A stretch of 44,580 nucleotides of DNA from Desulfocapsa sp. (GCA_020717925.1 DYDL01000002.1:1-44580), one strand, 5' to 3'; counted from the first letter of the stretch, positions 2,254 to 6,221 are shown. Translations and numbers: made by a program. The notes: generated by a model from the letters alone, not told the origin.

Positions 2254-2352
2254 TTACTCCTTCCAATCCGGCCGCAAATACAACTCCGTCAACTGCTTCC
2301 TGGCCACCGGCGCCGGGCGTCGGTGAGCAGGAAGGTGACTTTTTGGGAAAAC
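2254..2352 (-). pseudogene. Relic copy of the aspS 3' end (insertion scar / att-like direct repeat)
   Basis: 2254-2280 is identical to 4437-4463, the last 8 aspS codons plus TAA. The relic reads VARKQLTELYLRPDWKE*, against VARKQLTELHLRPDWKE* in the live gene. Similarity continues to about 2350 and includes a 1-nt indel. Confidence 0.8.
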
Positions 2353-2532
2353 TCCCATTAACCCTGCCTGTGTGCTGCCTATGCTGTTCAAGGTATGCTG
2401 CTGCGGGAACCGTTTTGCAGGCGCTTACAGAAAAGCTGACCATGGTAAGGGCGGGCAGCACCTTCGTTGACTTGTGAAAGATATGACCTCTTGCTCAGAT
2501 AGCCCCCGTGTCTTCTTTGGAGTGGTCTTTGC

Positions 2533-3078
2533 TTACGCAGCGGCTAAAAGTCCCCTCGCGGCATCCATCTGCCTATCGAGTTCGATCAGAGTCGTTTGCG
2601 CTTCTTCCAGGGAAACATGCGATTTCAGAGCATGAATTTTCTCTGCACGTTGCCTCTCTTCAACCTGCAGTTCCTTGGTGACGTAAAGGGCGGTGGCAAG
2701 TTTTTCCAGTTCCGCTACATTTTTATTGCCAAGCCAATGACCCAGGAAGGCAATTTTCTCTGCATAGCGGTTAATGGTTTTAGGGAAAGTTTCCTTAAGG
2801 TCAGCCCAAGCGCGCCCTGGCAGCATGCGTGGCCCATAAGGGTTCTGCGGCACGACCTTTAACAAGTTGTCGGCCCGGAGGCTGCCTAATTCTTCACTCA
2901 GATCAAAAGAATATGGTCCATGCTTATAAAGGATAAAATCGTGCCCAAGATCGCTTTCCAGCATCTGCTGCAAGAAATAGGTTGCTTTCTGGATATGGGT
3001 TTCTCCGCACCAACTACCATTATTTTCTAATTTTTCAACTAACGAAAGCAGTATTGCGACGCGAGCCATTCTTTTCAT
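2533..3078 (-). CDS. Small partner protein, Panacea (SocA/DUF4065)-like or YwgA-like
   Basis: Its ATG (3078-3076) overlaps the TGA (3077-3075) of the HD gene as ATGA. The core 'GETHIQKATYFLQQ...FILYKHGPYSFDLSEEL' resembles the Panacea/YwgA pattern. This is a motif-level judgement only. Confidence 0.6.
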   Translation of the reverse strand: MKRMARVAILLSLVEKLENNGSWCGETHIQKATYFLQQMLESDLGHDFILYKHGPYSFDLSEELGSLRADNLLKVVPQNPYGPRMLPGRAWADLKETFPKTINRYAEKIAFLGHWLGNKNVAELEKLATALYVTKELQVEERQRAEKIHALKSHVSLEEAQTTLIELDRQMDAARGLLAAA

Positions 3079-4382
3079 TGATCTTCCTCCTCTTCCATCC
3101 TCTGGATAATATCCTTCTTGTTTTCCGCGAGCCATCGGACGGCTTTTTCTTTAACCATGGGGCTGATGAAAACAGAGTCAACGACAATTGAGGGAATGGT
3201 AGGGATGATTTCGGATAAAACCCAAGATGAAACTATTCCATTCATGGAGGTAAGTACAGGAAAATCTATAATTCCGGCGTTTTTACTGTATTGGTCGCGG
3301 CGCACGGTTTCCGCGCCAAATTCAGCAGATACAGCTTCATAGATCATTTTCACGGATTCCAAATTGACTTTGATGTCATCCGGGTTTCTTTCATATAGCA
3401 GACGGTAATGCCCCCGATTACAGATAGTAAGGGCCGGCAGATGGCCTGGATTTTTTTCATCTGCCGCCGCTTTGCGGATTTCGGTGGTGATTTCGGCATC
3501 AGTGATCTGGAGATGACTGTGAATGTCGGTTGAATATTTCCCCCCTGGCAAGGTAGCAAGCAAAAACTCTTTCAAGTGAATGTCGTAAATTCTCCGGACC
3601 GGATGACAGTAAAGCTGGGTGAACATGAAGTGCCTAGCCAGAATTAGGGCTTCGGCGGAGTGCAGTCCACCCGCTTCCACCCCGAGGGTCGGTTCAGATT
3701 GGTGGTTTTCACCCGATGGCAGAATCCGCAACGTGTCGATCAGACGATAATGATCGAATTTTCCGTAGGCCACCCCGGCATGCAGCGAATCACGGAGTAA
3801 ATAATCAATACGATCGACACCAAAGGCATTGCCGGTGATGATTTCCGCAAGGATGGCCTCCCAGCTAGTGAATGTTGCCGTGGGCAATTCCTTCGGTCCC
3901 AAGGCCAGTTTGGCGATATGGTCACTCTTCAGGGGCGGTGTGAGAGAATTCCACAGACGTTCCATTTCCGGACTTTTGATCAAAACAAGGGTAAGGTCCT
4001 CGTGGGTTTTCTTATCGGGCAGCAATTCTTCGGCCGCATGAGAAAATGGCAAGTGGCCGATATCGTGACAAAGTGCCGCCATCCTAAGAACGCGCCGCCA
4101 ATATCGCAACTCGTCGGTGGCCGGAAAAATATCCCGGCAGCCCTCATGCCGGTTTTCCTCGTCGGTGATTACATCGAAAACCCGGCTGGCAAGATGCAAC
4201 ACTCCCAGGGAATGCTCGAACCGTCGGTGCGTAGCACCCGGGTAAACAAGATAGGTCAAGGCAAGCTGGTGAATATGCCGAAGGCGCTGCACAGGAACTG
4301 AATTGAGAACTTCACGTTCGGCGGTGTCGATTTTGACAAATACCGCAACAGGATCACGGATTTCGTGGAATCTTTTTGTCAT
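3075..4382 (-). CDS. HD-domain phosphohydrolase, SAMHD1/EF1143/YwfO-like (COG1078; probable dNTP triphosphohydrolase)
   Basis: Motifs present: 'RLRHIHQL', 'HRRFEHSLGVLHLA', 'AALCHDIGHLPFSHAAE' and 'VDRIDYLLRDSLHAGV'. Confidence 0.8.
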   Translation of the reverse strand: MTKRFHEIRDPVAVFVKIDTAEREVLNSVPVQRLRHIHQLALTYLVYPGATHRRFEHSLGVLHLASRVFDVITDEENRHEGCRDIFPATDELRYWRRVLRMAALCHDIGHLPFSHAAEELLPDKKTHEDLTLVLIKSPEMERLWNSLTPPLKSDHIAKLALGPKELPTATFTSWEAILAEIITGNAFGVDRIDYLLRDSLHAGVAYGKFDHYRLIDTLRILPSGENHQSEPTLGVEAGGLHSAEALILARHFMFTQLYCHPVRRIYDIHLKEFLLATLPGGKYSTDIHSHLQITDAEITTEIRKAAADEKNPGHLPALTICNRGHYRLLYERNPDDIKVNLESVKMIYEAVSAEFGAETVRRDQYSKNAGIIDFPVLTSMNGIVSSWVLSEIIPTIPSIVVDSVFISPMVKEKAVRWLAENKKDIIQRMEEEEDQ

Positions 4383-4436
4383 TATTTTCCCCGTTCTTGT
4401 TGTCGGGTTAGTGTCCTTTTGAGGAAGAAATTCTTT

Positions 4437-6221
4437 TTACTCCTTCCAATCCGGCCGCAAATGCAGTTCCGTGAGCTGTTTCCTGGCCACCGACGACGGG
4501 GCCTCGGTCAGAGGGCAGGTGGCCTTCTGGGTCTTGGGGAAGGCGATGACGTCGCGGATCGACTCGCGGCCGGCGAGGATCATGAGCAACCGGTCGAGGC
4601 CGAAGGCCATGCCGCCGTGGGGCGGGGCGCCCAGTTCCAGGGCGCGGAGCAGGAAGTCGAACTTGTCCGTTGCCTCCTCGGGGCTGATGCCCAAGGCGCG
4701 GAAGACCTTGTCCTGCATGTCCTGGCGGTGGATGCGGATGGAGCCGCCGCCGATCTCGGTGCCGTTCAGCACCAGGTCGTAGGCGCGGGAGAGCGCCTTA
4801 CCGGGCTCGGTGTCCAAGAGCGCGATATCCTCCTCGCGCGGCGCGGTGAAGGGGTGATGCACGGCGACGTGGCGTTTCTCCTCGTGGTCGTACTCCAGCA
4901 GGGGAAAGTCGGTGACCCAGAGGAAAGAGAAGCTCTCCTTTTTCAACAACCCCAACCGCCGGGCCAACTCCAGCCGCAGTTCCGACAGGGCCTGATGCAC
5001 CACGGTGGTGGTGTCGGCCACGAAGAAGAGCAGATCGCCGGGTACGGCATCGAGGGCCGCGGCCATGTCAGCCCTTTCCTGGTCGGTAAAGAACTTGGCG
5101 ATGGGCGACTGCCACTCGCCGTTTTCCTTGACCTTGACCCAGGCCAACCCCTTGGCCCCGAACTGGGCCACATAGGCGGTGAGATCGTCCAAATCCTTTC
5201 TGGAAAAATCGGCGCACCCCTTGGCGTTGATGCTCTTCACCAGACCGCCGGACTCGACCACGGTCTGAAAGACCTTGAAGCCGCAATGGGCCACCAGGTC
5301 GGTCAGGCTCACCAGCTCCATGGCAAAGCGCAGGTCGGGCTTATCGTTGCCGAAACGGCGCATCGCCTCGGCGTAAGTCATGCGCGGGAAGGGCGGGGTC
5401 AGTTCCACGCCCAGGGTGGCGCGGAAGAGCTCCTTCATCATGCCCTCGGCCACGGTGTAGAGGTCTTCCTCTTCGACGAATGACAGTTCCAGGTCGATCT
5501 GGGTGAACTCGGGCTGGCGGTCGGCGCGCAGATCCTCGTCGCGGAAGCAGCGGACGATCTGGTAGTAGCGGTCCATGCCCGCCACCATGAGGATCTGCTT
5601 GAAGAGCTGGGGCGACTGGGGCAGGGCGTAGAAGCGGCCCGGGTTGACCCGGCTGGGCACCAGATAGTCGCGGGCGCCCTCCGGGGTGGAGCGGGTGAGC
5701 ATCGGCGTCTCGATCTCCAGGAAGTCCTGGCTGTTGAGAAAACTGCGCATGGCCTGGCACGCCTGGTGGCGCATCACCAGGTTGCTGGTCATCTCCGGCC
5801 GCCTGAGGTCGAGGTAGCGGTATTTCAGACGCAGCCCCTCGGCCACCTCGATCTCCTCGTCCAAGGGAAAGGGCGGCGTCTTGCTGACGTTCAAGATACG
5901 CAACTCACCGACCAGCACCTCGATGGCGCCGGTGGCCAGCTTAGGGTTGACCATGCCGGCGGGTCGCTCTATAACCCGGCCACGCACCGCGATCACCCAC
6001 TCGCTCCGCAGGTCGTGGGCCTTGGCGTGCACCTCGGGGTTGACCTCCGGGTTGAAGACCACCTGGGTGATGCCCCAGCGGTCGCGCAGGTCGATGAAGA
6101 TCACCCCGCCGTGGTCGCGGCGCCTGAGCACCCACCCCATGAGGGTGACTTCCTTGCCCATATCGCCACCGCCCAGCGCCTGGCAGTTATGGCTGCGCCG
6201 CAGCCCGCCCATGCTTTCCAT
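4437..6221 (-). CDS. aspS: Aspartate--tRNA ligase
   Basis: 594 aa. Contains 'GWVLRRRDHGGVIFIDLRD', class II motifs 'FRDEDLRADRQPEFTQID' and 'GGGSIRIH', and 'GLDRLLM'. Confidence 0.95.
   Translation of the reverse strand: MESMGGLRRSHNCQALGGGDMGKEVTLMGWVLRRRDHGGVIFIDLRDRWGITQVVFNPEVNPEVHAKAHDLRSEWVIAVRGRVIERPAGMVNPKLATGAIEVLVGELRILNVSKTPPFPLDEEIEVAEGLRLKYRYLDLRRPEMTSNLVMRHQACQAMRSFLNSQDFLEIETPMLTRSTPEGARDYLVPSRVNPGRFYALPQSPQLFKQILMVAGMDRYYQIVRCFRDEDLRADRQPEFTQIDLELSFVEEEDLYTVAEGMMKELFRATLGVELTPPFPRMTYAEAMRRFGNDKPDLRFAMELVSLTDLVAHCGFKVFQTVVESGGLVKSINAKGCADFSRKDLDDLTAYVAQFGAKGLAWVKVKENGEWQSPIAKFFTDQERADMAAALDAVPGDLLFFVADTTTVVHQALSELRLELARRLGLLKKESFSFLWVTDFPLLEYDHEEKRHVAVHHPFTAPREEDIALLDTEPGKALSRAYDLVLNGTEIGGGSIRIHRQDMQDKVFRALGISPEEATDKFDFLLRALELGAPPHGGMAFGLDRLLMILAGRESIRDVIAFPKTQKATCPLTEAPSSVARKQLTELHLRPDWKE

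Follow-up and report, generated by a model that had tools for sequence, protein, structure and literature searches.

The aspartyl-tRNA synthetase gene aspS of a groundwater Desulfobulbales/Desulfurivibrionaceae-like bacterium (Desulfocapsa sp., GCA_020717925.1 DYDL01000002.1:1-44580) is followed by two genes, encoding an HD-domain phosphohydrolase and a 181-aa partner, and then by a second, partial copy of the aspS 3' end. We analyzed this arrangement within the whole 44,580-nt stretch (hereafter, the window) and conclude that the locus carries the scar of an insertion at the end of aspS, with a core that genuinely reflects recombination. The features are listed in Table 1. AspS is 94% identical to the AspS of a sister species (L014), and the GC content of the gene (about 63-69%) is typical of the core genome. 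GC falls from 62-69% in the core genes to 42-57% between the aspS stop codon and the window start, and the insert itself has a foreign composition (42-54% GC vs 62-69% in the core genes). The 2.18 kb between the two aspS ends hold only the HD gene and the 181-aa gene (hereafter, the cassette), in agreement with a preliminary description of the locus that had seen two cassette genes and no recombinase there.

The two aspS ends share a 27-nt identical block in direct orientation (2253-2279 and 4436-4462; hereafter, the core), and the second copy lies 2183 nt downstream of the aspS end. The preliminary description had recognized this repeat but placed it one base off, at 2254-2280 and 4437-4463. 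It was also right that TAA lies inside the core, but the rest of the block is the base after the stop codon, seven aspS codons, and two bases of the eighth, not eight codons. Without gaps, the copies agree at 48 of 54 and at 56 of 65 positions. Six differences occur within the first 54 nt, exactly as first counted. Five base changes over four codons are synonymous (AAG/AAA, TTG/CTC, GAG/GAA, and TTG/CTG), and the sixth is a Tyr/His difference (TAT/CAT; A at 2280, G at 4463) at the first base outside the core. Beyond these 54 nt, the distal copy (hereafter, the relic) carries a 1-nt deletion, which is the frame-breaking indel reported earlier, and homology continues to 2348; an extension to the FPK codons, where similarity had been said to end, requires an extra 8-nt gap. 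Since the gaps of 1 nt and 8 nt add up to 9 nt, the open reading frame (ORF) of the relic (2254..2391) is in frame again at FPK.

The local alignment of the two copies covers 96 nt with 16 mismatches and 1 gap (82% identity). Its Smith-Waterman score of 105 is far above the scores of 500 shuffles (18.5 +/- 2.4, maximum 31), which settles a concern raised at the outset, that the alignment might not hold up when computed. The score without the identical core is still 56, compared with 18.6 +/- 2.5 in shuffles. Even with three mismatches allowed, the window contains exactly two occurrences of the 26-nt core (0 expected), and no third copy is present past the window start in L001 and L003. The same arrangement is found in two contigs of metagenome-assembled genomes (MAGs) at NCBI, one ENA contig, and one unbranched Logan unitig with a uniform depth of 31.9. 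Because it is recovered in four independent assemblies at uniform depth, the repeat arrangement is not an assembly artefact.

Table 1. Features of the aspS-end locus, in window coordinates.
Feature	Position	Strand	Remarks
HEAT-repeat core gene (134 aa), 3' end	1..68	+	Convergent with aspS; stop codon at 66-68
HigA-like antidote gene	55..345	-	Pairs with the HigB-like gene
HigB-like gene, Gp49/DUF891	355..648	-	Toxin-antitoxin pair with the HigA-like gene
MazE-like antitoxin gene	769..1005	+	Weak NCBIfam TA_MazE match
MazF/PemK toxin gene	986..1315	+	Pfam PemK_toxin 3.2e-28
52-nt segment, mazF 3' end and intergenic DNA	1302..1353		83% identical to the sister-species segment
253-aa orphan gene	1383..2144	-	Older downstream flank; no Pfam, NCBIfam, or PADLOC match
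Relic, attR-like, 96 nt	2253..2348	-	Foreign, decayed aspS 3' end; core at 2253-2279
Spacer between cassette and relic, 184 nt	2349..2532		No match to any fetched sequence
181-aa partner gene	2533..3078	-	4-nt overlap (ATGA) with the stop of the HD gene
HD-domain phosphohydrolase gene, 435 aa	3075..4382	-	Pfam HD and HD_assoc_2
Spacer from the repeat to the HD start codon, 53 nt	4383..4435	-	
Gene-attached repeat copy, attL-like	4436..4531	-	Native last 31 codons, stop codon, and 1 nt
aspS, aspartyl-tRNA synthetase, 594 aa, intact	4437..6221	-	Pfam tRNA-synt_2 2.5e-127, GAD, OB
hisS	6246..7583		aspS lies downstream of hisS

The identity of the core exceeds what conservation of the gene end would leave. 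Real aspS alleles accumulate differences in their last 28 nt at the same pace as in the 69 nt before (rate ratio 0.7-1.5). The relic differs at 17 of the 69 positions upstream of the core, so that 5-6.6 differences are expected in the core itself, and the probability of observing none under allele-like divergence is about 0.001-0.005. Because real alleles would show about 5-6.6 differences and not zero, the core marks a recombination joint, and these rates point to recombination (a crossover site or a conversion tract) rather than conservation as the source of its perfect identity. An RNA element, a tRNA, or a terminator was searched for as a cause of core conservation, and nothing was found. 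The earlier designation of the block as a candidate attachment (att) core gains from this comparison, as either a recombination joint or an att core would show such an excess of identity.

A cassette-less strain of the same species (L033, the second contig of a sister MAG) shows which of the two copies is native. Over hisS and aspS, L033 is 99.92% identical to the window (3 single-nucleotide differences in 3672 nt); the last 770 nt of aspS are free of differences, and the aspS end of L033 matches the gene-attached repeat copy exactly. The gene-attached copy is therefore the native allele, and the option in the preliminary description that the element supplies the gene end had to be abandoned. 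The gene-attached copy is also identical to the sister-species allele at 88 of the last 97 nt (90.7%), within the gene average of 88-91%. In contrast, identity of the relic to the aspS allele of its own genome and to the sister-species allele is just 82% in each case, which marks it as the foreign copy.

The differences in the relic are of two kinds. From 2280 to about 2316 only allelic-type changes occur, and the 13 codons adjoining the core carry only changes of the kind seen between functional alleles. The Tyr of the relic is also present in L005, L007, and L023, and with the 1-nt deletion restored the relic reads 'APAP' (Ser-Ser to Ala-Pro), as in L014. From 2317 to 2348, the relic has the 1-nt deletion together with Cys-to-Phe and Pro-to-Leu changes at residues that are invariant in all relatives; the frameshift and these changes represent decay. 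Because the differences are allele-like, the relic came from a coding aspS and not from a local duplication. It is a decayed piece of a once-coding aspS end from another lineage, and the synonymous changes, the shared Tyr, and the 'APAP' reading bear out the early proposal of a diverged allele that was once coding.

Two rival explanations bear on these findings. A local tandem duplication followed by drift can yield direct repeats, but the copies have diverged by 18% with a synonymous bias while the population flanks are 99.9-100% identical; together with an assembly chimera, for which the recovery in four independent assemblies at uniform depth leaves hardly any room, we consider it the least probable of all explanations. 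In the second, of the e14/phage-21 type at icd, the element would have given aspS its present 3' end and the relic would be the displaced native end. A 3'-end duplication with mostly synonymous differences fits that model. However, the gene-attached end is identical to that of the cassette-less strain, its 90.7% identity to the sister species equals that of the rest of the gene (88-91%; relic, 82%), and the identical block occupies the 3' side of the duplication, while the model places its crossover at the 5' edge. This polarity was rejected, as the native end is on the gene and the diverged copy is distal, and the explanation is very unlikely.

The outer edge of the core is precisely the point from which strains vary. 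L033 diverges completely from the window at 4436/4437, the base after the aspS stop codon, into a different gene. The same alternative junction is present in an 846-nt unitig (depth 12.7) from the sample in which the HD form has a depth of 31.9. The other gene of L033 (3678-4050) directly follows the aspS stop codon and is partial (99 aa, MMDEESREFAIGIISGELL..., 52% GC); it matches no family and is not similar to the 253-aa gene. Of the alternative haplotype, about 816 nt long, L033 covers 373 nt.

On the left, the variable region is bounded at 47/48, within the HEAT gene and six codons from its stop codon. In the same metagenome, a minor haplotype is represented by a 352-nt unitig (depth 5.7) that shares 13-47 with the window and then resembles 1305-1336, and its HEAT protein ends in ...MQPAAT* compared with ...MQPNLAIPR* in the window. 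This unitig implies a haplotype without the two toxin-antitoxin modules, and HigBA and MazEF appear to be an insertion that rewrote the C-terminus of the HEAT gene. The whole 4.4-kb region between the convergent aspS and HEAT-repeat genes has a low GC content and differs among 99.9%-identical strains. The strain-variable unit is thus the whole of 48..4436, not 2280..4436 as first proposed, and within it the HD cassette represents just the latest layer. In addition, an aquifer sample of another year (X3) contains 100%-identical unitigs at the HigBA, MazE, and 253-aa 3' regions and at aspS. The words sampled from 60-2250 are present at 25% in X3, compared with 0 of 229 from 2350-4430, and its depth is zero over 1684-4488, where about seven unitigs are expected (P about 0.001). 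These data suggest that X3 carries a haplotype without the cassette in which the flanks are kept.

Two further readings involve an exchange of inserts at the stop codon. The last 27 nt of aspS might be a live attachment site at which integrase-less inserts are swapped at the stop codon of this essential gene by a recombinase encoded elsewhere in the genome; the inserts would then be the HD module here and the gene in L033, and each unit would bring its own aspS-end mimic. We regard this as improbable. Slightly less probable still is a host-recombinase site at the aspS stop codon, either of the Xer/dif type used by integrative mobile elements exploiting Xer (IMEX) or integron-like, at which integrase-less cassettes would be exchanged. 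Strains that are 99.9% identical do carry different inserts starting directly at the stop codon, and no recombinase is encoded in cis. However, the locus is about 27 kb from dnaN without a GC-skew switch and is therefore not at a terminus or dif position, the core is by inspection not a dif-like imperfect palindrome (28 bp in dif), only a single relic and no repeat array is present, and no repeat follows the insert of the sister species. The dif/IMEX form was rejected on the first of these grounds, namely, the nearby dnaN, the missing skew switch, and the non-palindromic core.

The aspS loci of 18 species-level relatives and three metagenome contigs with the exact core were compared with that of the window. 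None carries a second copy of the aspS end (0/18 and 0/3), so the duplication is not a general motif downstream of aspS, as had been considered. The empty site suggested in the preliminary description, in which aspS is directly followed by the 253-aa gene, was not found among them; other genes follow aspS, and no relic is present. Downstream of aspS, the sister species carries, in this order, a frameshifted DUF4143 ATPase gene, a repetitive extragenic palindromic (REP)-like repeat, the 52-nt segment, and birA; more distant relatives carry housekeeping genes there. The 52-nt segment (83% identical) lies about 0.9 kb downstream of the sister-species aspS in the same orientation relative to aspS, and mazEF is not present at that locus. 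Its counterparts (L028, 5441-5491; L014, about 2830-2880) include the last 13 nt of mazF, and the segment is a remnant of older shared synteny. Repeats resembling REP elements or miniature inverted-repeat transposable elements (MITEs) occur in the sister species at 2515-2805 and 6531-6830 of L014 and at about 5340-5430 of L028, with spurious ORFs that read '...TGIQKA.NQFKR.D..LRGNDKK'. One such copy lies between aspS and birA, adjoining the frameshifted DUF4143 ATPase pseudogene.

The cargo of the scar is a two-gene module that is widespread elsewhere. The HD protein matches PDB entries 2hek (5.5e-54), 2o6i (EF1143; 2.2e-28), and SAMHD1 (about 1e-17), and its H...HD...D motifs are readable in the sequence. 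Its matches to dGTPase models are weak (16-30 bits vs curated cut-offs of 152-500; Dgt, NCBIfam NF041026). It belongs to the wider HD + HD_assoc_2/SAMHD1-like superfamily and is a putative deoxynucleoside triphosphate (dNTP) triphosphohydrolase acting as an effector or toxin. The 181-aa protein matches NCBIfam antitoxin_DarG (2.5e-08, profile positions 169-318 of 338), PADLOC DarG (4.5e-10), and PADLOC PDC-M19A (5.2e-07). Given this resemblance to the DarG C-terminal domain, the partner is a putative antitoxin of the HD protein or a regulator of it. The 53-nt spacer upstream of the HD gene contains neither a sigma-70-like promoter nor a terminator, and the HD gene may therefore be transcribed by read-through from aspS.

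A search with the HD protein returned 7460 matches at E<=1e-10, and the 181-aa gene always adjoins the HD gene (L025, L026, L034, L037, L039, and L041). The closest copy of the cassette (L025; 88% protein and 84% DNA identity) directly follows an HTH_17 gene and a tyrosine integrase gene in a defence island that also holds SNF2, Fic, Abi_2, and HsdR genes. Other copies are located in type I restriction-modification operons, after hsdS (L026) or hsdM (L037), beside an IS200-like Y1 transposase gene (L034), and between msrA and a HAD hydrolase gene (L039). The low-GC cargo and its presence elsewhere in defence islands, once beside a tyrosine integrase, uphold the initial reading of the cassette as an insertion. 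The pair, which is translationally coupled, looks like an uncharacterized toxin-antitoxin or defence pair, most likely a dNTP-depleting toxin/antitoxin or abortive-infection-type module. The module is 78-84% identical at the DNA level over exactly its two coding sequences, with no identity outside them (L025, L026, and L037), and homology to other cassette copies begins only at 4387/4386, and at 4382 in an X4 unitig. In the L039 genome (7.9 Mb), a macrodomain gene that stands alone (177 aa) and a 164-aa gene after it occupy 4042-5066, about 1 kb upstream of the HD cassette, and could be a split DarG-like pair. A viral origin of the cassette or the core was rejected, as the viral contigs searched contain no core match and no relative of the HD protein.

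We favor, with a probability of roughly 0.5, the entry of the HD cassette by a single reciprocal (Campbell-type) crossover at the aspS end. The partners would have been the last 27 nt of the chromosomal aspS and a circular DNA on which an aspS-end mimic adjoined the cassette. The product would consist, in this order, of the native aspS end (attL-like), a spacer, the HD gene, the 181-aa gene, a second spacer, the attR-like side (69 nt of a foreign aspS end and the identical 27-nt core), and the older flank, which starts with the 253-aa gene. Because the crossover would fall in sequence common to both partners, aspS would stay functional. The recombinase may have been lost or supplied in trans, or host homologous recombination may have acted on the 27-nt identity; 27 nt is close to the minimum efficient length for RecA in E. 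coli. What is left would be a remnant that can no longer move, or can only be deleted. From the sequence comparisons we infer the circular intermediate, the position of the crossover, and the cargo function. The cassette beside a tyrosine integrase in L025 and the strain variation that starts at the core edge favor an integrative vehicle.

Several results weigh against such a crossover. No integrase, transposase, or excisionase gene is present in 48..4436 or in about 5 kb beyond (L001 and L003), and no recombinase was found among the window ORFs scanned. The core does not lie next to foreign DNA in the 18 relatives, the three metagenome contigs, or any viral contig searched; its only exact occurrences elsewhere are at sister-species aspS ends, and no integrase gene lies next to aspS in the relatives. 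The other cassette copies, including the integrase-bearing L025, have no flanking direct repeats and no aspS mimic, so that the aspS-end scar is a one-off. The 69-nt aspS-like arm is not required for site-specific recombination and needs a separate explanation, such as an earlier aberrant capture from another host. The 47/48 edge of the variable region has no comparable repeat. The X1 unitig (13..4466) is unbranched, with neither an aspS-to-253-aa joint nor a circle joint at assembly depth, and X3 is only suggestive, as its uncovered stretch (1596-4711) exceeds the cassette and the junction is unassembled. Of the site-specific integration put forward in the preliminary description, the insertion scar and the recombination core therefore stand, while site specificity, a recombinase, and a cognate element did not emerge. 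The cassette with an integrase nearby, which the preliminary description had suggested looking for next to aspS, was found (L025) but not next to aspS, and the core was found in no other element among the relatives, the metagenome scan, and the viral contigs.

The main alternative, which we hold to be possible but clearly less probable than the crossover, is illegitimate or homology-facilitated recombination during island turnover, in which the aspS end of a linear donor fragment from a diverged relative hitchhiked and the 27-nt identity arose later or by chance. The stretch of about 96 nt would have come with the 253-aa or HD block through a non-homologous end join at about 2348, and the identity would stem from gene conversion to the end of homology, or from chance. 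The region is indeed a multi-haplotype hotspot without a recombinase, the left boundary cuts the last codons of the HEAT gene with no repeat, the 5' edge of the relic is ragged (1-nt and 8-nt gaps), and other cassette copies lack direct repeats. However, an identity of 27/27 beside 75% has a probability of about 0.001-0.005 under allele-like divergence. A 96-nt stretch at about 75-80% homology is a poor conversion substrate given the requirements of RecA, and the relic, with 96 nt at about this level, is poorly suited to conversion. In addition, no other genome seen has the 253-aa gene or the cassette beside aspS. As 253-aa homologues never adjoin aspS, we rejected the idea that the relic stems from a native junction of a diverged aspS with the 253-aa gene.

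The 253-aa protein belongs to a well-conserved orphan family of 220 homologues (56-71% identity) across Deltaproteobacteria, Tectimicrobiota, and others, which occur singly, in variable regions and unrelated contexts, e.g., near a DUF4238 gene in L030. Unitigs of an aquifer metatranscriptome (X2) cover 2073-2321 (depth 18) and 2330-2500 (depth 9.6), which shows transcription of the relic and the 184-nt spacer; they may form a 5' leader for the 253-aa gene or be read through from the cassette. Past the window start, L001 and L003 contain the HEAT-repeat gene followed by thioredoxin, BamD, QueH, and sigma-54 activator genes. The dnaN gene lies at 30986-32116, about 27 kb from the aspS-end locus, and is followed by two long plus-strand ORFs (32160-37169; 802 and 848 aa), which are probably gyrB and gyrA; the window may be origin-proximal. 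GC is also low in patches near 26-28 kb, 30-32 kb, and 42-44 kb.

If the favored crossover is true, aspS joins the housekeeping genes whose 3' ends serve accessory DNA as landing sites, and the locus cleanly illustrates, in nature, how such a defence or toxin-antitoxin module is fixed after its vehicle was lost. The polymorphism among 99.9%-identical groundwater strains means that the insertion or deletion step could be observed in existing samples. The widespread HD and 181-aa pair, often located in type I restriction-modification operons, may outlast the scar in interest. Like the SAMHD1/EF1143 dNTPases and DarG, the module combines an HD protein that matches dNTPases in the PDB with a partner that matches the C-terminal toxin-binding part of DarG. 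Unlike the curated Dgt and anti-phage dGTPases, the HD protein scores far below the cut-offs, and unlike DarTG, the module has neither DarT nor a macrodomain and the neighbor is the HD protein. The pairing of an HD protein with a DarG-C-terminal-like protein was not found in a toxin-antitoxin paper (PMC8832971).

The locus is an island remnant at the 3' end of a gene, which is an already known kind of feature. To our knowledge, aspS is not among the known insertion targets, and a literature search yielded no such report. ICESt1 and ICESt3 insert at fda with short direct repeats of similar size. SGI1 inserts at the trmE 3' end (PMC8409611). As in these islands, the insert is flush with the end of a housekeeping gene that remains intact, a short perfect direct repeat stands at both junctions, and the cargo is foreign and of the accessory or defence type. 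In contrast to them, the aspS insert has no integrase or excisionase, and a further 69 nt from a diverged aspS allele adjoin its distal repeat. Of the features that characterize islands, att-like repeats with the target sequence and a foreign composition are thus present, and an integrase of its own is not. Integrase-less derivatives of integrative elements are known from the Streptococcus thermophilus literature as cis-mobilizable elements (CIMEs), which are defined by a cognate element with the same att sites. The aspS insert resembles them in its small cargo between att-like direct repeats and in having no recombinase of its own; it differs in that no cognate integrase-bearing element for the aspS core is present in any collection searched. 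When e14 and phage 21 integrate into E. coli icd, the element's copy joins the gene and displaces the native end. A gene's 3' end is duplicated there as at aspS, and the copies differ mainly at synonymous sites, but at aspS the native end has stayed on the gene and it is the foreign copy that is displaced.

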